The position numbers were made by a program, and so were the translations under genes. From the sequence record PQ384582.1: a stretch of 44,482 nucleotides of DNA. One strand, 5' to 3'. Source of the stretch: Escherichia phage EcoPhCCP1. This document shows positions 112 to 41,720 of the stretch, in pieces (position 1 is the stretch's first letter; each line of letters opens with the position of its first letter). The notes below the pieces were generated by a model. That model made no database searches and had not been told where the DNA came from. It saw nothing but the letters and a program-made list of their open reading frames with translations.

Positions 112-265
112 CCTAACCCCAGCTTCGCGGCAGCAAACGTAGCAGAGATACCAGCAGCCCCTGTCTCGGTGAAATATGCCTCTTCCAGCCTAACCCCAGC
201 TTCGCGGCAGCAAACGTAGCAGAGATACCAGCAGCCCCTGTCTCGGTGAAATATGCCTCTTCCAG
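112..265. repeat. perfect 77-bp tandem direct repeat, two copies (112-188 and 189-265)
   Basis: Read directly: both copies are cctaaccccagcttcgcggcagcaaacgtagcagagataccagcagcccctgtctcggtgaaatatgcctcttccag; phase ambiguous by 1 nt. Confidence 0.95.
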
Positions 266-619
266 CGCCTGCGCCGTTTCCCAGGCTTCTGCAAATGCGG
301 GAATCTCGCGCAGCCACAGCTTAATAATCGGGATAGTGACGCCAATGTGTAAGGCGAAGCGGGCCAGTGATGGTGGTTTATCCTGAATCAGCGGGCGTTC
401 GTCACCCTTAGACGTGGGCACAAGCTCCCATGACGTGCGGTCGAAGAAACGAATCAATTCGTCGCAATAGTCCGGGTCCCACAACGCGGCGGAATTACGG
501 GATGATTGATAAAGGCTCTGTTTACCGCGCGGTCGTTTACGGCGACGGTTTGCGCTAACAGCTTCTTCATGTGCAGCTTGCACCACCTCTGGTGATGGCT
601 GCTTGAGTTTCAGCTTCAT
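113..619 (-). CDS. terS: terminase small subunit (C-terminus altered by the 77-bp duplication)
   Basis: Small-terminase-like motif pattern (PSLARFALHIGVT...W...AF); AAGGGGA SD 4 nt before ATG 617-619 (track ORF extends to 658); circularly adjacent to terL. Confidence 0.6.
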   Translation of the reverse strand: MKLKLKQPSPEVVQAAHEEAVSANRRRKRPRGKQSLYQSSRNSAALWDPDYCDELIRFFDRTSWELVPTSKGDERPLIQDKPPSLARFALHIGVTIPIIKLWLREIPAFAEAWETAQALEEAYFTETGAAGISATFAAAKLGLGWKRHISPRQGLLVSLLRLLPRSWG

Positions 620-636
620 AGAATCCCCTTGCGTAT

Positions 637-690
637 GCGTCTGACCATCAGAGCGCATCAGACGCGCCCTACGCGTCTAAATGGATTATA
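637..690 (-). promoter_or_regulatory. candidate promoter/leader upstream of terS: TATAAT (690-685) plus two overlapping, mutually exclusive dyads
   Basis: Dyads AGACGCG/CGCGTCT (660-666/672-678) and GCGTCTGA/TCAGACGC (637-644/658-665) share the CGCGTCT arm. Confidence 0.3.
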
Positions 691-7010: not shown

Positions 7011-7156
7011 ACAATAGACTATGGCCCTTCCGAATGCGCCAGCGAGACTCACTCCACACGTCGAGACGTGCTCGTTTCGCCTGCCGCGCACCGCGGTCGC
7101 TTGTTCATACTTCACAAGCTCAGGTCGAGCTTAGCATATTTCTTAGTAAAAGTCAA
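7011..7156. repeat. non-coding repeat element, copy 1 (paralog of 38980-39121)
   Basis: Direct alignment: about 80% identity overall with a 45-bp near-identical core (CGCGGTCGCTTGTTCATACTTCACAAGCTCAGGT.GAGCTTAGCA). Confidence 0.85.
7128..7156 (-). promoter_or_regulatory. promoter-like module in repeat copy 1: TTGACT-N17(TGn)-TAAGCT (minus strand)
   Basis: -35 TTGACT (7156-7151), 17-nt spacer, extended -10 TGcTAAGCT (to 7128); conserved in copy 2. Confidence 0.4.
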
Positions 7157-7203
7157 TACCTGTAGCATCTTTTGTATCTTAGTAACTTTGTGTGGTGTTT
7201 TGG

Positions 7204-7232
7204 TTGCTTTTACAAAGTTACCGCCTTATACT
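7204..7232 (+). promoter_or_regulatory. sigma70-like promoter TTGCTT-N17-TATACT for the plus-strand replication operon
   Basis: Hexamers at 7204-7209 and 7227-7232; GGAG SD and ATG 7262 downstream. Confidence 0.4.
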
Positions 7233-7261
7233 TCGGTACATCTTACATAGGAGAACGTGAA

Positions 7262-7432
7262 ATGACTATCAATGAAGTAGCTGAACGTATTGGGGTGACG
7301 CGCCAGACAATTAATAACTGGATTAAGAGTGGAAAGTTTCCTGATTGCAGCGTTAAAGTAATGGGTCGCCGGATGCCGGGGACATTTGACCGTAATAAAG
7401 TTGAAGCGTGGATTAAGGAGAACGTGAAATGA
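7262..7432 (+). CDS. HTH DNA-binding protein (AlpA/Xis/MerR-like)
   Basis: Internal ATG 7262 with GGAG SD; MTINEVAERIGVTRQTINNWIKSGKFP is a typical HTH. Confidence 0.6.
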   Translation: MTINEVAERIGVTRQTINNWIKSGKFPDCSVKVMGRRMPGTFDRNKVEAWIKENVK

Positions 7433-7838: not shown

Positions 7839-10096
7839 ATATTGTTTTTGCAGCGCTGCGAAACACATTCGATAAAAACCCGGTAGCGCGTGAAATGCCG
7901 CTGGAGCAGTTCGTAGAGTATGTCTGTGATACGTCGAAGCGTTTATCTGTAGACCCGTCGTGGACTAAGGAAGAGTACGACGCAGCCAAGATTAAGCAGA
8001 AGGCTATCGCACCTGTTGGTGGTCGCCGTAAAAACGCGATTCTGGAAGACAGTGTGGTTAAGTTCGACTTTGACCATCTCAACCGTACTCAGTACCGCGA
8101 CCTGACACGCAAATTCAAGAACGCGCCGTTCTTCAATATTCTGCACACGACGGCGTCGCACCAGCACGCGTGTAAAAACGGTGACTACGCTTTCCGCGTT
8201 CTCGTACCGGCCCGCACGCCGTTTAACTCTAACGACGCGTGGATGGTGCAACGTGCTATTTGTGCTGAGTTAGAAATAGACGAAGCATTGCGCGACCACT
8301 GCACAGAAGATGGCAACCGCCTTATCTACCTGCCGCATAAAGAGTCGAAGATAACGGTTACAGAAGGGCGTGTTATCCGTGCCGAGCGGTACATCAAGAA
8401 AGCCGAAGAGATGGGGCTGCGTAAACGTGAAGCTAAGACGCTTGCTGCCGATGAGCACGGGCTTAACGCAGATATAGCTCATTTCTGCGAAGCCGAGCTG
8501 GGCCTTGACGCTTTATCTTCCGGCCGAGGGTATGAAGTGCCATGCCCTAATGAACATCTGCATACTGGCAAAGGCTCTACCAGCATCATGCTCGATGGTA
8601 AAGAAGTGCGCTTTGTATGCCAGCATACGAACAACGGCGCTTGTACCGAGCTTAACCGTCGGCAACATTTGGCCTTGCGTATGTGCGGCCTGCCCGACGA
8701 GCTTAACGTAGACAAGCAACCTATCAGTATTAACAGCATTCGTGCGGCTTTGCCTGACTTACCTGACGAAGAGATTGAAGAACTGCACCGCACAGAGAAC
8801 GAGGAGCCTGTAACTTGTACGCTGGAAGACCTCGAAGACGAGCCGGAAGTAGAAAAAGAACCTGCTTACTCCGTCGTAGATGGTCTTATGCAGACTAACG
8901 AATCATTCTACATTTGCGCAAAGTCCCACACCGGTAAGTCGACATTTAGTATGGCGATTGACGCCGCCATCACCGCCGAAAAAAGATATGCGTTCGGTGG
9001 CGCTGAGGTCGCAGAAGGTCATGCATTTATCTTCGCAGGCGAAGGTGCACAGTCGTTCGAGAGACATAAAAAATCTTTGCAGATTGCACTTGGCGATAGC
9101 CTCGACCGCTTACACATTATCGATTGTGTTGCTGAGGGGTGTAACTTACTTGACGAAGCGTGGCGACGTAAGGCGGTGAGAATGATGCGCCGTGTTGCCG
9201 GTGAAGAGAGAATTGTAAAGGTTACGTTTGATACCCTGCAAACCTGTATACCTGGCTTCGACGAAAACGACAACAGGTCAATGAAAGAAGCGGCGCAGGC
9301 GCTTAACGAAATAGCGTCTACGCTTAACGCCGCGGTAGGTGCTATGGTGCACCCGACTAAAAACATCGATGAAACTGTACCATCCGAGAACGGCATGATG
9401 CCGAAGGGCGGTAGTGATTTTCACAACTCCATCGATAACGGGATGTTCCTGCATAAACCAGACAACGACAATAACTTAGAGATAAACCTGTATCACATAA
9501 AGAACCGAAACGGAGAACGGCAGAAAGCCAGAGGATTCGTAATACAGAAGATTCAGATAGCGGAGCCACCGGAAAAGAAAGAACCAACTCACAACTTCAT
9601 GGGACTCCCGGAAGGGTACAGTAGTGACGATGTACGAGATTTTGACGCAGGAAATCCGCACATCGATGTCTTTGTTAACTTTAACGCCTTCTCTGTCTTC
9701 GTGAAGAAAGTAGAAGGTATGACCGACGAACAGAAGGAAGCCGTTAAAGAAAAAGTAGGCCAGTTCGAGAAACTGGACACCAAAGAGGCTACGGTTATTT
9801 ACGCATTAGGTAAATTGCAGGAGCAGGGCGACGACAAGCGAGGGTTTTCTATGTCCGCTATCGTCAAAGCGGCGAAAGAAGATAGTTACGGCGTACCGAT
9901 TAACGCTAATAACGACCTTCGAAAAAAACTGGAAGAGATGCACGAGGCGGGGGTTATCGTCTCGGGTCTGGATAACAACAACAGACCTATCCCTAAGCAA
10001 TACAGGTTGCCGTGGGGCATAAACGACAACAAGATTCCTAAGACAATATACGAACAGAATGAAATGCTTACAGTGACCGAGGAAGATTTGGAATAG
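7835..10096 (+). CDS. DNA primase/helicase (AEP-like primase N-domain, zinc-binding segment, P-loop NTPase C-domain)
   Basis: FDFDH and SHQH primase-like motifs, Cys/His cluster (CPNEHLHTG...CQHTNNGAC), Walker A AKSHTGKST. Confidence 0.7.
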   Translation: MNIVFAALRNTFDKNPVAREMPLEQFVEYVCDTSKRLSVDPSWTKEEYDAAKIKQKAIAPVGGRRKNAILEDSVVKFDFDHLNRTQYRDLTRKFKNAPFFNILHTTASHQHACKNGDYAFRVLVPARTPFNSNDAWMVQRAICAELEIDEALRDHCTEDGNRLIYLPHKESKITVTEGRVIRAERYIKKAEEMGLRKREAKTLAADEHGLNADIAHFCEAELGLDALSSGRGYEVPCPNEHLHTGKGSTSIMLDGKEVRFVCQHTNNGACTELNRRQHLALRMCGLPDELNVDKQPISINSIRAALPDLPDEEIEELHRTENEEPVTCTLEDLEDEPEVEKEPAYSVVDGLMQTNESFYICAKSHTGKSTFSMAIDAAITAEKRYAFGGAEVAEGHAFIFAGEGAQSFERHKKSLQIALGDSLDRLHIIDCVAEGCNLLDEAWRRKAVRMMRRVAGEERIVKVTFDTLQTCIPGFDENDNRSMKEAAQALNEIASTLNAAVGAMVHPTKNIDETVPSENGMMPKGGSDFHNSIDNGMFLHKPDNDNNLEINLYHIKNRNGERQKARGFVIQKIQIAEPPEKKEPTHNFMGLPEGYSSDDVRDFDAGNPHIDVFVNFNAFSVFVKKVEGMTDEQKEAVKEKVGQFEKLDTKEATVIYALGKLQEQGDDKRGFSMSAIVKAAKEDSYGVPINANNDLRKKLEEMHEAGVIVSGLDNNNRPIPKQYRLPWGINDNKIPKTIYEQNEMLTVTEEDLE

Positions 10097-10121
10097 GTAA
10101 AAAGAAAGGGGCGTTAAGCCC
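10097..10121 (-). terminator. rho-independent terminator (minus strand) at the end of the XRE gene
   Basis: GGGGC-GTTAA-GCCCC hairpin (10107-10121) followed on minus strand by TTTCTTTTTT. Confidence 0.5.
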
Positions 10122-10329
10122 CTTCACCGAACGCCAGCCACTTGGCGTCTACTTCCAGCACTTCTGCCAGTTTAAACAGCGTCGCCGGGCGGACATCCTG
10201 AGTTACACCGAGTGCCAGTTGGTTAATCGCGCCCTGGGAAACCCCAGCCAGAACAGCCAGACGGCGCTGGGAGATGCCGAGTTCTTTACGGCGTTGTTCT
10301 ACACGGATGCCTAGTTCAGATGGTTGCAT
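10114..10329 (-). CDS. XRE-family HTH transcriptional regulator (Cro/CI-like)
   Basis: LGISQRRLAVLAGVSQGAINQL is a classic XRE HTH; gene is antiparallel to the flanking replication genes. Confidence 0.75.
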   Translation of the reverse strand: MQPSELGIRVEQRRKELGISQRRLAVLAGVSQGAINQLALGVTQDVRPATLFKLAEVLEVDAKWLAFGEGA

Positions 10330-29193: not shown

Positions 29194-29300
29194 TCTTTAA
29201 TCCTTTGGTTAAGAGGTTACTGGTTAAAGGAAATGCGCCAGACGGGAACCACCCGCTTTTCGTGTGCGACACTAGGCGCAAAATTATTCTAACACACTAC

Positions 29301-29329
29301 TTGCACACCCCAATATAATAGGGTACTAT
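29301..29329 (+). promoter_or_regulatory. phage promoter family member TTGCAC-N17-TACTAT (plus strand) driving the moron island
   Basis: 32 bp (29301-29332) identical to 39188-39219. Confidence 0.6.
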
Positions 29330-29360
29330 TCACTTACACCAACAATGGAGGGGTTTTAAG

Positions 29361-31976: not shown

Positions 31977-33146
31977 TGCGTAGGTGATACGCTGGATAAC
32001 AATAGACGACTGGTATTGATTGCCTGTGGACTGCCCTTCTATGCTCTGGGTAATTGATTCAGGTCCGCCAATCTCTGGCGTAACCGCCGTGAGTTCTGCG
32101 CGTTTCAGACTGAAAGACATAGCCCCGTTTACCCCCGCCAGAATAGAGTTAATCTCTACCTGCTGTTCGTTGATAAACTTCTGAATCATCGCCATGTCAT
32201 ACAGCTTACCGGAGATGGAGAAGGTGTTAGCCGCGCGGCTACGTTCCACAAACGCTACGTTAGTGTTGCCGAGTTCGAACTGTGCGGACGCGCTGTTATC
32301 GTTGGTGATGGTCAGGCTGTCGCAGCGCAACGGCGTAGAGCCATCGAACACAGAAACGTCAACCGAGGAGAACGGCTCATCAGTGAACGTAACAGAGGAG
32401 AAGTCGGAACCAGACGGCGCCGCGGTAAGAATCTCCTGGCTGCGCCCGATGAACGGGAAGCTGCCCGTCACCATCGCGTTAACGGTCTGTTCAACAGTGA
32501 AACCAGAAACTTCCACGCCTTTGGTAAGCGTGTACGCGTCTGTCCCGCCGCACTGGCCCTTGTACCAGGTGAGAATAGAGAACGTCTTACACTGGCTGCC
32601 GGTTTCCAGTTTGTCGCCGGTCTTAGCCGCGGTAGTAGCAGTCTCGGTGATCAGAGTGTGTTGAATACCCGCACCAGTTACCACCAGTGCCTCTACCGCA
32701 GTAACAATAAACGGTTTAGCGTTATCGCCGGTTAAGTCAGTAAACGCAATCAGGTCGCCTACTTCCACACCGTCAGTAATAAAGCTACCTCCGGCACGGG
32801 TGAACGTCTTGTCCACCGGTGCGACGGTAATCGACAGCCCCGACAGAGAAACACCGGATTGCCACGTAGAGCCTAAAGCACCCGCCAGCCAGTCGTCCTG
32901 GCTTTTAGAGCTAAGCTCGACCGCGTATTCACCGCTAACCTGTTTGTTACCGGTTCGGATGGATGTAGTTTCACGGCTGCCGTCCAGTTCGTTGGAGGTC
33001 AGCGTGTCGCGGGTGATAGCAGGAACGCCACCTGTGTTACGCAACGGTGACCAGACCGGGTTAGTCGGTGTTACGCCCGGGGTAGTTTCCGCCACATAGA
33101 ATTGCGCGGTAGTCGCGCCCTTAAAAGGAGTTGTAGCCATATTCAC
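31974..33146 (-). CDS. major tail protein (by position)
   Basis: 390-aa Thr/Ser-rich protein downstream of connector/terminator genes; no motif recognised. Confidence 0.5.
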   Translation of the reverse strand: MNMATTPFKGATTAQFYVAETTPGVTPTNPVWSPLRNTGGVPAITRDTLTSNELDGSRETTSIRTGNKQVSGEYAVELSSKSQDDWLAGALGSTWQSGVSLSGLSITVAPVDKTFTRAGGSFITDGVEVGDLIAFTDLTGDNAKPFIVTAVEALVVTGAGIQHTLITETATTAAKTGDKLETGSQCKTFSILTWYKGQCGGTDAYTLTKGVEVSGFTVEQTVNAMVTGSFPFIGRSQEILTAAPSGSDFSSVTFTDEPFSSVDVSVFDGSTPLRCDSLTITNDNSASAQFELGNTNVAFVERSRAANTFSISGKLYDMAMIQKFINEQQVEINSILAGVNGAMSFSLKRAELTAVTPEIGGPESITQSIEGQSTGNQYQSSIVIQRITYA

Positions 33147-35018: not shown

Positions 35019-35531
35019 TTAACCCCGGTACACGTTAAACGAGAAGCCATTGTTAAGACCGCCACACAGTAACGGGCGTAAGGCGTCGTCGGCAGCGGTA
35101 ATGGCAGTTGTAGCGCCACTGTTACCGTTGTTGAAGTATGTCACCGTCACCGCACCCTCCACACGCTCGGTCTGCACAGAGCGCCCATCGGAGTTAGCCC
35201 GCACTTCCGTACCTGCGCCATAAGTAGTGGCAGCGATCACCTGCGCAAGAATTATCTGTTTCGGGATAACACTGTTCGCTACAGGGAAGCCATTTAACGT
35301 TACGCCGGTGCGAGGATACGCAAGAGACTGTTCTGCCGACACGCGTCTACCGCACATCTGCGGTTCTGCAAGCCCGACATAAGTAGCACCGTTGCGCAGG
35401 GCCACCTCTGCGGCGGTATCATCTGCCGGTAACTCAAGGCCATAATTAGCCGCTAACGCGCGGGCGTCAGCCAGGCTAATGTAACTGTCAGCGCCAGGTA
35501 CTATTGACCCATCTTCCACGATTAGCGGCAT
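35019..35531 (-). CDS. head-tail adaptor/connector protein (by position)
   Basis: Gene order downstream of capsid/decoration genes. Confidence 0.4.
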   Translation of the reverse strand: MPLIVEDGSIVPGADSYISLADARALAANYGLELPADDTAAEVALRNGATYVGLAEPQMCGRRVSAEQSLAYPRTGVTLNGFPVANSVIPKQIILAQVIAATTYGAGTEVRANSDGRSVQTERVEGAVTVTYFNNGNSGATTAITAADDALRPLLCGGLNNGFSFNVYRG

Positions 35532-35534
35532 AAA

Positions 35535-35714
35535 TTATTCCTCTGACTTACGGCGGCGACGCTTAGTACCACCACCGTTGTTGTGCGCTTCTTCGCTGTC
35601 CGGTTGAACCGCTACCAGTTCATCCGCTTCTACCGCACCGCGAACAGGCATCACCTGACCGTCAACAATATCAACGTGGGTGTACTTTTCACGGATTACA
35701 TAATTATCTGCCAT
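35535..35714 (-). CDS. hypothetical protein (59 aa, below cutoff)
   Basis: Translated by hand: MADNYVIREKYTHVDIVDGQVMPVRGAVEADELVAVQPDSEEAHNNGGGTKRRRRKSEE; AAGGAAAGG SD. Confidence 0.4.
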   Translation of the reverse strand: MADNYVIREKYTHVDIVDGQVMPVRGAVEADELVAVQPDSEEAHNNGGGTKRRRRKSEE

Positions 35715-36537: not shown

Positions 36538-37587
36538 TTAAGCACCGACACCAGTTACCAGAAATGCAATCGGTACATGCTTACGATCAACAACGCGGTT
36601 CCAGTTGGAGGCGTTCGCCAGGTCCTGCCAGGAGGCAGAACGTGCGACAGTCTCGGTGCCGTTGCCGGTGATTACCGCGCTGGTGAAGCTGTAACCAAAC
36701 GGGTGCAGCAACCATGTCTTACGGGTCCACAGGGTTTCGACGCCGCCGCCGTTACCACGAGACGCTTCGCGTTCGTATTCCAGCGGGTTAGACGGATTGC
36801 CTTCACCATAACCGATAGCTCCGTTGCCGAAGATGATGGAGATGAACTTGCGGCTCGGGCCAGTTCCGACCACGGTCATGCTGTCGTCAACAATCACACG
36901 GTAGCCCTGGTAGGTGGCGAACAAGGTGTCGTTGTCGGCGTCTTTGATGAAGTCGATAAGTTGCTGCTTACGCGCCTGCGCATAAACGAAGCTGTGCATC
37001 GCGATAGCGCCCAGCACTTCACCGCCGTTGCCCATCAGCGCATCGCCCATAGTCTGGGTAGCGTCGATGAATGCGCCCGCGTCGAAGCCCAGAGAAGCAG
37101 ACACGTCGATAACCATATCGTTCTGCGTATGGTATTCATCGGTAGCGGCTACGTTGTCGTTGTACAGACCGAGCGCGGTAGCAATCAGACGGCGTTGCGC
37201 CTGGCGCTGCCAGAAGTTATCCAGACGGGCCGCTACGGAGCGCAGCGGCTGCTGACTGGTCAGTTCGACGGTCAAATCCGCCTGGCCGAAACCTTCGTTC
37301 AGGTAAGCTACACGAACATCCATCTCACCGGTCTGCACGTTACGCGGGGTAGCGATGTCCTGGTATACGTCGTTCGAGTAGTTCGGCTCGATAGAGGTGT
37401 CAATCGCTTTCCAGTACGGCAGAACCGCTTTGTTGGACGGGCCGTTAGCGATAGCAGCGGCGTACGGAGTCTGGGTCAGAATACCGGACTGGAAGAACGC
37501 GGTTTTTTCTACCGGGTCCTCGGTCATGTAAGACAGAATTACCGATTCTTTACCAGTTACGATATCGCCAATAGTAGTAATTGCCAT
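36538..37587 (-). CDS. major capsid protein
   Basis: 349-aa ORF immediately downstream of the scaffold-like gene. Confidence 0.7.
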   Translation of the reverse strand: MAITTIGDIVTGKESVILSYMTEDPVEKTAFFQSGILTQTPYAAAIANGPSNKAVLPYWKAIDTSIEPNYSNDVYQDIATPRNVQTGEMDVRVAYLNEGFGQADLTVELTSQQPLRSVAARLDNFWQRQAQRRLIATALGLYNDNVAATDEYHTQNDMVIDVSASLGFDAGAFIDATQTMGDALMGNGGEVLGAIAMHSFVYAQARKQQLIDFIKDADNDTLFATYQGYRVIVDDSMTVVGTGPSRKFISIIFGNGAIGYGEGNPSNPLEYEREASRGNGGGVETLWTRKTWLLHPFGYSFTSAVITGNGTETVARSASWQDLANASNWNRVVDRKHVPIAFLVTGVGA

Positions 37588-38345
37588 TATTTTTTCCTCA
37601 GGGCTTTAAGTTGCCGTTCAAATTCGGCAGGGTTCGATTCGTACAGAGCGATACGCTCCGCTTCACTCATGTCTTTAAACGCTGGTGCGGCCCCGCCGCC
37701 TTTGCCACCGGAAGCCCCGCCGCCGGAAGCTGCATTTGCTTTAATCAAATGCGAAAACGCTTTGTGTTCACGCAGATATTTGCGGAACTGTTCCGGGTCA
37801 GTCGTGATTACGTTGCCGTCTGCACCAACAAACTTAGTAACCACATCATCGCCTTCGAACTCAGTCTTAACGAACGGTGCAAGAATGTCCACTGCTTCAG
37901 GGGTGATGAAGTCACCTGCGAAAGAGCCTAACACCGCTTTACGTTCGCTGCCGAGGATGCGCTCTGCCATTCTGGAGATGCAACCATCTTTCTCGGCCAG
38001 CACCGGGTCATACTGGCTACGAATCGTTTTTTCGAACTCGTCCATCTTACCGGCGGCTTTTAGTGCCTCCTGGTGCGCGCGCTGCCGTTCTTCTTCGGCC
38101 TCTTTTGCTTTACGAGCGGCTTCTTTCTTCTCCGCCAGCAATGCTTCCTGATTAGCCTTAAGACCGGCGACTTCTTTCTCAATCAGCGCCTGAACTTCTT
38201 CGGCTGTGAACATTTTTGGCGCGTCACCGCCACCAGCTTTATCTTCTGCCCCAGCTTCTTCCTGGAACGGATAACGTAAAAAACGATTCATAGTCAGTAT
38301 GTCCCCTGGACGTTGGAACCCGGGCCACCCGGATTTACATGTCAA
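37587..38345 (-). CDS. capsid scaffolding protein
   Basis: Helical, charged, Ala/Glu/Lys-rich; immediately upstream of the capsid gene; true start probably an internal Met. Confidence 0.6.
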   Translation of the reverse strand: MTCKSGWPGFQRPGDILTMNRFLRYPFQEEAGAEDKAGGGDAPKMFTAEEVQALIEKEVAGLKANQEALLAEKKEAARKAKEAEEERQRAHQEALKAAGKMDEFEKTIRSQYDPVLAEKDGCISRMAERILGSERKAVLGSFAGDFITPEAVDILAPFVKTEFEGDDVVTKFVGADGNVITTDPEQFRKYLREHKAFSHLIKANAASGGGASGGKGGGAAPAFKDMSEAERIALYESNPAEFERQLKALRKK

Positions 38346-38373
38346 GAATAAATTATTCCAACATGCAAGGCAA

Positions 38374-38637
38374 CTATTCCAGAATATTCCTCACGTAATC
38401 CTGCAACATGAACACTTTCAGCCTCAGCTGCCGTACGCATTCGGCGTTCTGGACGTCGATAGCTAAATCCTCGTCAGCGTCGCTACTTGGCGGCGCCAGT
38501 TTGCACGGAGGCTGCATCATTGTCGTATCCGGGGATGGAATTGGCGTTTGCGACGGCGCGGGACTTGAGCAGGACGCGAGCATCGTCGAAAGTGCACACG
38601 CTGCGGCCAGGCGTTTTAATGTACTTAACGACTTCAC
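38374..38637 (-). CDS. o-spanin (Rz1-like outer-membrane lipoprotein)
   Basis: Signal peptide with lipobox LASC, Pro-rich mature region; starts inside the i-spanin gene in another frame. Confidence 0.7.
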   Translation of the reverse strand: MKSLSTLKRLAAACALSTMLASCSSPAPSQTPIPSPDTTMMQPPCKLAPPSSDADEDLAIDVQNAECVRQLRLKVFMLQDYVRNILE

Positions 38638-38869
38638 GGGTAATCACCTCTGATTTCGTCTTGCCTTCGTTGTCGGCGGCTGCGGCCTTCGATTCATCTT
38701 GCTGCTGCCGTTGTGTTTTCTTCGCTAACTCAGCCTGTGCTTTCTGCTGTTGCTGCGAAACGAGATTCGCCCGGCCTTCGTTCCAGCCGCTGTGATACTG
38801 GTAGATGCCGTGTGCGTAAGCCAGGATGGTGAAACATGCTCCTGCTACGACAGTTGCTTTAAGATTCAT
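38483..38869 (-). CDS. i-spanin (Rz-like)
   Basis: N-terminal TM segment, Gln/Lys-rich coiled coil; AAGGAG SD; overlapped gene architecture with Rz1. Confidence 0.7.
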   Translation of the reverse strand: MNLKATVVAGACFTILAYAHGIYQYHSGWNEGRANLVSQQQQKAQAELAKKTQRQQQDESKAAAADNEGKTKSEVITREVVKYIKTPGRSVCTFDDARVLLKSRAVANANSIPGYDNDAASVQTGAAK

Positions 38870-38883
38870 GTTTCTCCTTTCTC

Positions 38884-38913
38884 GATAAGTAAAGCCCCGC
38901 CATAAAGCGGGGC
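38884..38913 (-). terminator. terminator/attenuator hairpin (minus strand) just upstream of the spanin RBS
   Basis: GCCCCGC-UUUAUG-GCGGGGC followed by UUUACUUAUC on the minus-strand RNA. Confidence 0.45.
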
Positions 38914-38979
38914 GCTAGTCCTTATCATTTAAACATAGAAACGGCGTAATCTCAGTAAACCAGTTACTTTTTACACAAG

Positions 38980-39121
38980 CAATAGAGTATGGCCCTTCCG
39001 AACGCGTCAGCGTAACTACACTCGGGACTTACGTCCGGCTCCGTTACCTGCCGCGCCGCGGTCGCTTGTTCATACTTCACAAGCTCAGGTGGAGCTTAGC
39101 ACATTTTCAGTGAAAAGTCAA
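38980..39121. repeat. non-coding repeat element, copy 2 (paralog of 7011-7156)
   Basis: Direct alignment with copy 1; conserved ends and core, variable middle with a 2-nt indel. Confidence 0.85.
39093..39121 (-). promoter_or_regulatory. promoter-like module in repeat copy 2: TTGACT-N17(TGn)-TAAGCT (minus strand)
   Basis: -35 TTGACT (39121-39116), 17-nt spacer, TGcTAAGCT; same architecture as 7128-7156. Confidence 0.4.
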
Positions 39122-39134
39122 CTATTCGAATAGT
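39121..39134. promoter_or_regulatory. perfect 14-bp palindrome ACTATTCGAATAGT abutting the -35 of the repeat-copy-2 promoter
   Basis: Read directly; half-sites related to the AATAG/CTATT dyad found in other promoters. Confidence 0.6.
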
Positions 39135-39187
39135 TTATTCCAACATTTACAATTCGGCGGAATACCTGGAATAGGTAAATAAATTGT

Positions 39188-39216
39188 TTGCACACCCCAA
39201 TATAATAGGGTACTAT
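39188..39216 (+). promoter_or_regulatory. phage promoter family member TTGCAC-N17-TACTAT (plus strand)
   Basis: 32 bp identical to 29301-29332. Confidence 0.6.
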
Positions 39217-39265
39217 TCATCTCAGCATACAACATGTTTAACCCATTAAATCGGGAGTATCTAAA

Positions 39266-39395: not shown

Positions 39396-39420
39396 AAGGC
39401 CCCGTTACGGGGCCTTTTAT
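39396..39420. terminator. bidirectional rho-independent terminator
   Basis: AGGCCCC-GTTAC-GGGGCCT followed by TTTT. Confidence 0.7.
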
Positions 39421-39881
39421 CATTCTGGCTTCGTAACCTTCGCCGCTTTACTTACGGCCTCTACACCATCGGCATCGGTAACCTTGACGAAGTATTCACC
39501 GACTGCATTAACTGTCAGAGACAGAGCTTCTTCTGGAGCGTTTACCACTTCCTTCCCGTCTTTGTACCAGGTCAAGGTATACGGTGCTTTGCCCGCCTTA
39601 ACTTCGACAGTGATAGTTGCGCTGCCGTCCACCAGTTCAGCGTCTTTTGGTTGCGCCGAGAAATACACGTCGCCAGCGTCCGCCAGATACGGAATCTCGT
39701 AAAGCATACCAGCCGCGGGGAGTGCAATACCGGTTTTATCTGCAAACGGCATGTCGTCTACTGGCGTACCTAGTACACTTTCATCTCCAATAAACACCAC
39801 GTTCTCGCCGGAGCCAGACACGCGAGCATACTGGACTACGCGACGCGACGGTACGTCAGTTACTTTGAAAAAGCCCATCAT
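39420..39881 (-). CDS. Ig-like domain structural protein
   Basis: C-terminal Ig-like pattern (YTLTWYKDGKEV...GEYFVKVTDADG). Confidence 0.5.
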   Translation of the reverse strand: MMGFFKVTDVPSRRVVQYARVSGSGENVVFIGDESVLGTPVDDMPFADKTGIALPAAGMLYEIPYLADAGDVYFSAQPKDAELVDGSATITVEVKAGKAPYTLTWYKDGKEVVNAPEEALSLTVNAVGEYFVKVTDADGVEAVSKAAKVTKPE

Positions 39882-40924
39882 TAATCCCCTTTCAGATAAT
39901 CAGCAACACGTTTATCGAGTTCCGCCATCTGCTTAAGCGTGAGCGGATTCCCGAAACCATCTACAGATATTACGCGAAACTCTTCCGGCGATATACCGCT
40001 GTTACGGAAAATCTTACCGCGAACAGGACCTAGCGCCTGGTCCTGAAACCATGCCGGTTGTTGTTTAAGGAACTCGTAATAGGTGGTGTCTGCGCTTACC
40101 TGAGTACCACCTTCTGCGCCCTTAGCCGCGCGTTTTGCGCCCTTATCCAGGAAATCGAACTCGGAACTGATTACGGGCGCACTGGTGCTTCGACAGCCAA
40201 AATGCGCGGGGGGCATCGGCCCTTTACCGATTTCCCACGTCATTCCATCCCTAGCTCTACAAATTGTGCTGGTACGGCTGTCCAACGTCGATACCCATTC
40301 GTACTTCTCGATGATGTCGTCGTTCTGGCGGTACGTCTCGTTGCGGGCTTCGTTAGATACATGCGACAGCGCAGTGTGGATTACCGTAGCCGCGTTGCGT
40401 TCAGAGATGTCAGCCAGTCCGCCAGCGCCTACGACATTCTTAACAATCTGCCGTGTGGTTTGACCTTGTACGAAACCAATCTTAACGCCTGTTATCAGGC
40501 GCGCGACCTCCGTTTCACCCCAGCCCGACATCAGCTTAGTGAAGTCGACTGGTTTGTCGCTTAATGATAACGGTTGAAACGCGGCAGCAGCCCACACCTG
40601 CTCAGCGGTGGGCGTAACAAATTCCGCGTTAACGTTGGCGTTAAGTGTCTTTACGTTCCACTCCGCCTCGTACGCCGCCAGTTCCTTAAGGTCTTCTGTC
40701 AGCTTTGTCTGCCAGTCGCCTGTAATCCCCGCCAGTGCTTCTCCAAGGTCGCGTAACAGCTTATTCAGACGCGCGGTGCTTCGCCCGTCGTCACCGAATA
40801 ACAGAACCTGCCGTTTGATTTCGTTCCGCATTTCCTGAATGAATGGTGCGAGGTCTTTTACTTCACCGGATGCGGCGCGTTGCAGCCAAATCTGGTGGCT
40901 GATTAGAGATGTCAGTAAGCTCAT
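39881..40924 (-). CDS. head morphogenesis protein (Mu F / SPP1 gp7-like minor head protein)
   Basis: TICRARDGMTW...HFGCRST motif pattern; positioned after the portal gene. Confidence 0.7.
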   Translation of the reverse strand: MSLLTSLISHQIWLQRAASGEVKDLAPFIQEMRNEIKRQVLLFGDDGRSTARLNKLLRDLGEALAGITGDWQTKLTEDLKELAAYEAEWNVKTLNANVNAEFVTPTAEQVWAAAAFQPLSLSDKPVDFTKLMSGWGETEVARLITGVKIGFVQGQTTRQIVKNVVGAGGLADISERNAATVIHTALSHVSNEARNETYRQNDDIIEKYEWVSTLDSRTSTICRARDGMTWEIGKGPMPPAHFGCRSTSAPVISSEFDFLDKGAKRAAKGAEGGTQVSADTTYYEFLKQQPAWFQDQALGPVRGKIFRNSGISPEEFRVISVDGFGNPLTLKQMAELDKRVADYLKGD

Positions 40925-41066: not shown

Positions 41067-41720
41067 ATGAAACTGCAAACATTAGAGTTCCCTTATGGAG
41101 AAATCACTTTTGACCGTGAAAACTTTATTAACGTAAACGAGCTGGTTGACCAGATGAACCGTTGGCGTTTAGACAACGGCATGGGGACAAGAGAGCTTCG
41201 CCAGGTCATGGCAACGGATGGCTTCAAGATTTTCAAGGAGGAATGCGAAAAACAACTCGGAATCGAGAATGCCATAAGGGCGACGAAAGGCCGAAACGGT
41301 CGCACCTTTGCATGTCTCCATCTGGCAGTATATATTGCTGAGCAATACAGCGCCTATTTCCATTTCCTCGTTATCGACCGCTTTATCACACAACGGCAGG
41401 TAGAACTACGAAACATTGGCGCGGTGAGCTTTGTCGAGCTTAACGCTGCCGTTAGTCGAATGATTGAGCGCACGGAGGGAAGAATTGGCCACAGTGGACA
41501 CTTCATACAGGTGGCTAAAGCGGTAAAGGAATCCGTAGATATCCGCGACGTAACGGGTTTCGATACATGGGACTCTCAGGATGCGAAGACCAATCAGTTG
41601 CGAAGTGACATCCAGAAAGCTCTGGTGACACTTCTTGACATGGAGGCCGTTAATACATGGGGTGAACTGAAAGAGGCGATACCTCGGGTTGTGCGTAAAT
41701 GTGCGGCTAATATACGTTAA
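41067..41720 (+). CDS. KilA-N domain protein (moron)
   Basis: GRNGRTFACLHLAVYIAEQYSAYFHFLVIDRF resembles the KilA-N/APSES core; opposite strand to the flanking structural genes. Confidence 0.55.
   Translation: MKLQTLEFPYGEITFDRENFINVNELVDQMNRWRLDNGMGTRELRQVMATDGFKIFKEECEKQLGIENAIRATKGRNGRTFACLHLAVYIAEQYSAYFHFLVIDRFITQRQVELRNIGAVSFVELNAAVSRMIERTEGRIGHSGHFIQVAKAVKESVDIRDVTGFDTWDSQDAKTNQLRSDIQKALVTLLDMEAVNTWGELKEAIPRVVRKCAANIR

Follow-up and report, generated by a model that had tools for sequence, protein, structure and literature searches.

The 44,482-nucleotide stretch of DNA analysed here (the window) is a Kagunavirus (Guernseyvirinae) genome. The region around the palindrome that is the subject of this analysis is 94-97% identical to approximately 180 GenBank phages, which comprise Kagunavirus and related Guernseyvirinae Salmonella phages. 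As judged from the annotated relatives Bas70, phiWAO78-1 and Jersey, the palindrome belongs to the long stretch transcribed late, leftward as the window is written, with the head-morphogenesis and Hoc-like genes (39420-40924, minus strand) on one side and the spanin, scaffold and major capsid genes on the other. A small rightward gene with its own promoter (39188-39219) and a bidirectional terminator (39396-39416) is inserted just upstream of the palindrome region; many relatives lack this gene, yet the palindrome region is kept in them. The features of the locus, in the leftward direction, are:

39159-39173, minus strand: two direct TATTCC repeats (TATTCC-AGG-TATTCC), the distal part of a GAATA/TATTC motif array; nucleotide diversity 0.036
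39145-39151, minus strand: conserved TGTAAAT box between the repeats and the dyad, at about -65 to -59, common to the Kagunavirus-type (K-type) and Jersey-type (J-type) alleles
39128-39140, minus strand: perfect GAATA-N3-TATTC dyad, GAATAAACTATTC, at -54 to -42, which includes the promoter-distal half of the palindrome
39121-39134: perfect 14-bp palindrome ACTATTCGAATAGT, which reads as two everted GAATA/TATTC motifs
39113-39126, minus strand: one-mismatch dyad AATAG-TTGA-CTTTT across the -35 hexamer, at -40 to -27, inside the core of the predicted promoter P_L2
39116-39121, minus strand: -35 hexamer TTGACT of P_L2, the copy-2 leader promoter; diversity 0.010
39093-39101, minus strand: extended -10 element TGcTAAGCT of P_L2; the -10 is invariant in 32 relatives (diversity 0.000)
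38991-39086, minus strand: structured leader RNA, copy 2, of about 96 nt, formed by a P1 hairpin and a long irregular stem-loop
38894-38913, minus strand: G+C-rich, terminator-like hairpin after the leader and ahead of the spanin start codon, with compensatory changes in relatives
38483-38869: spanin gene, with its start codon at 38869
38345-38380, minus strand: predicted scaffold promoter GGAATAG-TTGCCT(-35)-N17-TATTCT(-10), with the -35 at 38373-38368 and the -10 at 38350-38345
37587-38291: scaffold gene

The core of P_L2, TTGACT-N17-TGcTAAGCT, has a -35 hexamer that matches five of the six consensus positions and an extended -10, from which the start is predicted at 39086 (G) or 39085 (A). 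Box diversity was calculated from 32 close relatives, and the 17-nt spacer between the conserved boxes has a neutral-like diversity of 0.100, a combination that reads as the classical footprint of a real promoter. The same 29-mer is the predicted host promoter HP1 of the Kagunavirus fBC-Eco01, a software prediction (PMC9825357, supplementary Table S2). Jersey-type phages carry a P_L2-type core with variants (T[T/A]GACT ... TGtTACGCT), and Cornellvirus-type phages have a different leader promoter, from which the GAATA array is absent. No rightward promoter using the array was found by plus-strand reading or by promoter scan.

Seven sequence variants of the leader downstream of P_L2 fold into the same architecture, in which a long-range helix (CCG.GGNGC/GCN'UUCGG) has three pair types at one position (UA 7, CG 5, AU 2) and the apical hairpin occurs in fully compensated versions (GGGAC/GUCCU, GGUGC/GCACU, GUGCC/GGCAC and CACGU/ACGUG, in relatives L051-L118). 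A search of Rfam with 38850-39250 returned nothing better than E = 0.7, all far below gathering scores. The leader could be put-like or attenuator-like, or could be a small RNA; the U-tract of the hairpin that follows it at 38894-38913 is interrupted. The 306-bp promoter-leader module (38880-39185) is at least 93% identical in 178 GenBank phage records. Among these are the Salmonella phages SETP13 and FSL SP-101, in which the neighbouring spanin has no more than 65-75% identity, a contrast that suggests exchange of the module between genera by recombination. This promoter-leader architecture is more unusual than the palindrome itself.

A second copy of the promoter and leader is present elsewhere in the window, and Jersey carries the late leader copy only. 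The features of copy 1 are:

7128-7156, minus strand: copy-1 promoter with the same core TTGACT-N17-TGcTAAGCT (-35 at 7156-7151), with no upstream palindrome or GAATA array
7022-7121, minus strand: copy-1 counterpart of the leader

Neither a palindrome nor a GAATA motif was found in the region upstream of copy 1, in the window or in more than 20 sequences of relatives. The two promoter-leader copies thus differ only in the upstream module, and the proposal in the first-pass annotation that they could be regulated differently, copy 1 being without the palindrome, is supported at the sequence level. The copy-1 side has an inverted repeat of its own: 10-bp arms GTAACTTTGT and ACAAAGTTAC, separated by 20 nt, are located at 7167-7206 upstream of a gene for an HTH_17 protein, and the right arm falls in the spacer of a predicted promoter (TTGCTT-N17-TATACT, 7204-7232). 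This repeat is a possible candidate operator at the divergent copy-1/HTH_17 control region.

The 14-bp palindrome occurs once in the window, with the sequence and position first reported for it, and its full perfect symmetry in fact extends to 16 bp (AACTATTCGAATAGTT, 39120-39135). On the minus strand it occupies -35 to -48 of P_L2, with its centre at about -41.5, and shares 1-2 nt with the -35 hexamer. It had also been claimed that a perfect 14-bp palindrome is improbable by chance in 44 kb, which is contradicted by dinucleotide shuffles of the whole window: two palindromes of at least 14 bp were observed against 3.4 ± 1.9 expected, and one of at least 16 bp against 0.8 expected. The sole other long palindrome in the window is TAGCCGCGCGGCTA (32228-32241). 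Shorter perfect palindromes are strongly depleted: for minimum lengths of 6, 8, 10 and 12 bp the window contains 439, 108, 26 and 2, where 769, 195, 49 and 12.6 are expected, an avoidance that is consistent with selection against restriction sites. Because palindromes of 6-12 bp are so scarce in this genome, the site stands out mildly from its surroundings, by too little to carry an argument; the case for more than a chance occurrence lies in its conservation and context.

The 14-mer is unchanged in 33 of 37 K-type loci, and the variants are all single, one-sided substitutions, none of them compensatory. The nucleotide diversity of the palindrome is 0.022, compared, in the same genomes, with 0.131 for the third codon positions of the spanin gene next to it (P = 0.001, by resampling) and 0.113 in the inter-motif segment just upstream of it, and is 4-5 times below that of the flanking spacer and inter-motif segments of the same module (0.10-0.11), among K-type sequences that are closely related and recombining and are therefore not fully independent observations. 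These contrasts indicate that purifying selection acts on the palindrome. Among IMG/VR contigs, 33 of Kagunavirus type carry the exact 16-mer, at the P_L2 promoter in each, and its only other occurrences are four unrelated chance matches. The view that the site lies just upstream of a -35, where regulators typically bind, is borne out, in that a conserved site touches the hexamer.

Comparison of the alleles points to the motif array, rather than the palindrome, as the deeply conserved unit. The array has the layout [TATTCC x2]-N17-19-[GGAATA-N3-TATTC]-6 bp-[-35], which is kept in three diverged alleles, the K-type, the J-type and a third (D-type) allele, and the pair of TATTCC repeats is likewise present in the J-type and D-type alleles. 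The window contains exactly two perfect GAATA-N3-TATTC dyads (39128-39140 and 38346-38358), and Jersey likewise has exactly two, at the orthologous places (7256-7268 and 8012-8024); the dyad is also present in the D-type allele of L135, 6 bp from the -35. The distance from dyad to -35 is 6 bp in the K, J and D alleles, and because it is fixed in three diverged alleles, a role at the DNA level in initiation is suggested. The densest GAATA/TATTC clusters in the window are at 39123-39173 and 38346-38389, with five motifs per 60 bp each, a density that never exceeded four per 60 bp in 200 shuffles, and the top two clusters of Jersey are orthologous to these two. A third GAATA-N3-TATTC site at 35528-35540 (Jersey counterpart 10855) was rejected as a candidate, being an RBS-stop-start junction (GAGGAATAATTTATGCC) that is explained by translation signals.

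The 6 bp that link dyad and -35 read GAATAG in the Kagunavirus-type allele, AAAAAG in that of Jersey and CAAAAG in the D-type. Jersey-type phages have TTTATTCAAAAAGT at the position of the palindrome, in which the promoter-distal TATTC alone is retained. The third allele (IMG/VR L133, L135) consists of TATTCC-AAT-TATTCC, N19, GGAATAAATTATTCC, AAAAG and TGGACT ... TGaTAACCT, with unrelated inter-motif sequence and an unchanged layout. L028, the most diverged K-like locus, has lost the symmetry (CTATTCTAATGG) and kept the overlapping dyad and the repeats. As the linker is GAATAG in the Kagunavirus-type allele only, the palindrome is a derived state, in which the linker was turned into a fifth, extra copy of GAATA.

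The second cluster belongs to the scaffold promoter, where the perfect dyad GAATAATTTATTC (38346-38358) extends across the spacer and the -10. In Kagunavirus, Jerseyvirus, Cornellvirus and St162-like phages (the K, J, C and D lineages), this promoter has invariant boxes and a spacer that varies in its 5' part. The 9-mer GAATAGTTG is found at just two places in the window, -41 to -33 of P_L2 and the same interval of the scaffold promoter. The GAATAG-TTG junction that it contains abuts the scaffold promoter -35 in every lineage examined, and the promoter-proximal half of the palindrome reproduces this junction. A covarying hairpin (CCGGGTGGCCCGG) follows the scaffold promoter. Part of the cluster overlaps the end of the Rz1 coding sequence, and coding constraint contributes to conservation there.

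A perfect GAATAAATTATTC dyad falls on the o-spanin start codon (ATGAATAAATTATTCCTG) of Cornellvirus-like and D-type phages. It was found in L135, 460 nt upstream of the scaffold promoter of that locus, and in L134, L137, L140, L142 and L144. This dyad is either a third operator or a coding coincidence.

On balance, the palindrome is probably the promoter-proximal end of a composite upstream control region of P_L2, a leftward sigma70-type promoter, and this control region is predicted to be an array bound by a regulator. Transcription from P_L2 would cover first the structured leader, then spanin, scaffold, capsid and tail genes. Within the array, each copy of the 5-6 bp motif GAATA/TATTC(C) would be a functional unit, and a sequence-specific protein may occupy these copies as an oligomer. 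The change of the Kagunavirus-type linker to GAATAG would have created a fifth motif copy at -41 to -37, and only then the perfect palindrome. The bound protein would set the level or the timing of late transcription at copy 2 and not at copy 1. The site, its conservation, its geometry and the motif enrichment are read directly from the DNA, and from them we infer promoter activity, protein binding and the sign of regulation at P_L2.

The array-binding protein is most likely phage-encoded, with a host factor as the alternative; a by-eye comparison with the consensus sequences of the UP element, IHF, Fis, CRP, ArgR, RcsB, NarL and H-NS gave no convincing match. We lean towards positive control at P_L2, because the motif adjoins the -35 at about -41 and because the scaffold promoter that shares this motif has weak hexamers. 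An activator is not obviously needed, however, since TTGACT and an extended -10 should suffice and copy 1 has the same core without the array. The dyad over the -10 of the scaffold promoter is in a repressor-like position, and in C-type and D-type phages a dyad lies at the o-spanin start codon; the role of the dyad may not be uniform between sites.

A different reading, close to that of the first-pass annotation, takes the 14- or 16-bp palindrome itself as the operator of an HTH protein that binds as a symmetric dimer, such as the XRE-type protein (10114-10329), acting like a class II activator or a repressor at -41.5, with the likeness to other motifs secondary. The perfect 16-bp symmetry, a centre at about -41.5 of a predicted promoter and the low diversity of both halves agree with such an operator, as do the uniqueness of the site in the genome and its specificity to this promoter in IMG/VR; a length of 14 bp is typical of Cro/CI-type operators. 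The symmetry is lost, however, in the J-type and D-type alleles and in L028, in which the overlapping dyad and the repeats are kept, and the genome has no second copy within two mismatches, which would be unexpected of a dedicated regulator with more than one target. We regard this reading as rather unlikely.

The geometry on which it draws is that of class II activator sites and of lambda CI at OR2 activating PRM, which are dyads centred near -41.5 or -42 that abut the -35. The palindrome resembles them in being a dyad centred at about -41.5 that touches the -35 of a sigma70-type promoter, the value of -41.5 applying if +1 is 39086, a start predicted from the -10. P_L2 differs in its near-consensus -35 and extended -10, with which activator dependence is not evident, and the symmetric unit of the palindrome is lineage-specific.

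The palindrome had also been likened to a family of AATAG-N4-CTATT dyads at other promoters, which are located as follows:

5453, 6829, 10360, 10405, 13468, 17240, 29317 and 39204 (also 2675): AATAG-N4-CTATT dyads

This family is strongly enriched, with seven perfect and five one-mismatch sites in the window against 1.0 expected. Its members lie inside the core of approximately ten promoters in three registers, at about -19 to -6, at about -25 to -12 or across a -35, and the family is kept in Jersey. The pentamers CTATT and AATAG are indeed those of the palindrome, but membership of the family does not follow: with a matrix built from the eight best promoter dyads, the palindrome, which is everted (CTATT-CG-AATAG) with a 2-nt centre, scored -5.7 and ranked 705, and was rejected as a member.

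The dyad corresponds to the 'phage promoter' consensus tgAATAGTa-ccTATTat-T, which was obtained with PHIRE in fBC-Eco01 and assigned to a phage RNA polymerase (PMC9825357). No phage RNA polymerase is among the annotations of the annotated relatives examined, and because the dyads take three registers relative to the -35 and -10, they appear to fit operators of a global regulator rather than promoters of a phage polymerase. The gene for the XRE-type protein is flanked by two of the dyads (10360 and 10405), which makes this protein their natural candidate binder. With the PHIRE consensus of fBC-Eco01 (PMC9825357) the palindrome shares the pentamers AATAG/CTATT and the heptamer ACTATTC, and the overlapping register at 39113-39126 has the canonical 4-nt spacing with one mismatch. 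Members of that family are inside core promoters (-40 to -6), whereas the palindrome is upstream of the core.

The relevant site could accordingly be AATAG-TTGA-CTTTT (39113-39126), at which the regulator of the AATAG-N4-CTATT dyads, probably the XRE-type protein, would also repress P_L2, the palindrome being a by-product of the abutting GAATA dyad. This register is the best untrained matrix site in the genome, with a score of 15.4 against a mean null maximum of 12.4; the next-best untrained match, at 2675, also covers a -35. Dyads at three registers within core promoters are as expected for operators, and copy 1 is without the upstream half. The score nevertheless falls just short of 15.95, the 95th percentile of the maximum scores of shuffled genomes, and copy 1 also has the downstream half, CTTTT, which may simply be promoter sequence. 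The register is absent from the Jersey allele, whose score is 1.4 even though the family is kept elsewhere in Jersey, and the scaffold promoter has the GAATAG-TTG junction but not the dyad. Taken together, these results make repression through 39113-39126 improbable as the explanation of the site.

The palindrome may, alternatively, have no function of its own, being fortuitous, hitch-hiking on a recombining promoter-leader module, or forming part of A+T-rich upstream DNA or a host nucleoid-protein site. Chance alone would produce palindromes this long, the module is shared at 93% identity or more by 178 phages, among them Salmonella phages with a diverged spanin, and Jersey has an A-tract, CAAAAAG, at the same place. 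Neither chance nor hitch-hiking agrees with a diversity 4-5 times below that of flanking segments or with a proximal half that repeats the junction of the scaffold promoter, and no match to the UP-element consensus was seen in a reading by eye; lack of function is thus distinctly improbable. A hairpin or cruciform serving as a terminator, processing site, or replication or packaging signal is very improbable indeed, since against the perfect inverted symmetry and the U-run (GACUUUU) that follows on the minus strand stand an A+T-rich weak stem (RNA fold -5.2 kcal/mol, z = -1.4, with 21 of 200 shuffles as good; DNA fold -2.4 kcal/mol), variants in relatives that are single-sided and never compensatory, and a location far from terS and the replication genes. 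An intrinsic terminator at the palindrome was rejected separately, as the stem is A+T-rich and the terminator scan reports none there.

The preferred reading, a regulator-bound motif array, has parallels in other phages. P2 Cox, 186 Apl and lambda Xis are small phage HTH or winged-helix proteins that bind arrays of short repeats cooperatively. The P_L2 array resembles the P2 Cox boxes, the 186 Apl sites and the lambda Xis sites X1-X1.5-X2 in having several copies of a 5-6 bp motif, direct and inverted, at a spacing of 9-10 bp beside a promoter, and this phage encodes a 56-aa HTH_17/excisionase-like protein (7262-7432). The likeness is one of layout and may go no further, as the motifs of these systems have no sequence similarity to the GAATA array. 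The sites of phage Mu Mor and C are imperfect dyads centred at about -43.5 at middle and late promoters, and are alike in being the site of a small phage regulator that overlaps or abuts the -35 of late-function promoters. The -35 hexamers of Mu late promoters are poor, unlike that of P_L2, and no homologue of Mor or C was detected among the ORFs scanned.

The recognisable DNA-binding proteins of the window are the XRE-type protein (10114-10329), the HTH_17/excisionase-like protein and a NinH-like protein (899-1159), together with a weak KilA-N match at 41067-41720. A Pfam search of 20 further small ORFs returned no regulator beyond these. The first three had been named as possible binders of the palindrome, and none can be assigned to it from sequence. 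Because the window encodes an HTH_17 protein and lines up a promoter, a leader and a hairpin, a loading site of the AlpA/Q type was considered. It is not supported: the elements that AlpA and Q bind are located within or beside the core promoter and require a -10-like pause element, and no such element is conserved across alleles in the initially transcribed region. AlpA of P. aeruginosa is also much larger than the 56-aa protein, with contact residues up to H142 (PMC9371919).

The palindrome is therefore best described as a real, conserved and ordinary cis-regulatory site that is probably functional, its palindromic form being lineage-specific and secondary to the array. A regulator-binding palindrome beside a promoter is an ordinary kind of feature; what is defined here is a cis-regulatory module at two late promoters, with its motif, spacing and allelic variants. 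To our knowledge, the transcription programme of Kagunavirus and Jerseyvirus is essentially unstudied, published genome papers giving software-predicted promoters only, and the transcriptome paper on the Kagunavirus K1B4 has no promoter-level information. Kagunaviruses and Jerseyviruses are widely isolated as therapeutic or biocontrol phages.

A bolder conjecture, which we put forward tentatively and think unlikely, is that these sites belong to an undescribed late-gene circuit of the Guernseyvirinae. In such a circuit a single small regulator would bind GGAATA-N3-TATTC in front of the leader promoter, over the scaffold -10 and, in some lineages, at the o-spanin start. It would act with the novel leader RNA and the downstream hairpin, in a manner like lambda PR'/6S or put, to time the expression of lysis and head genes, and the extra half-site of Kagunavirus would alter copy 2 relative to copy 1.

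Two further features were observed in other parts of the window. A match to the Rfam int-alpA RNA (29218-29282, minus strand) scored 36.6 bits against a gathering score of 35.8 (E = 0.00047) and lies immediately upstream of a rightward promoter (29301-29332). Inside a terminase small-subunit-like ORF (113-658, minus strand) near the beginning of the window, 77 nt are duplicated exactly and in tandem (111-187 and 188-264); the duplication could be an artefact of assembly or circular permutation, or a real in-frame-breaking repeat.
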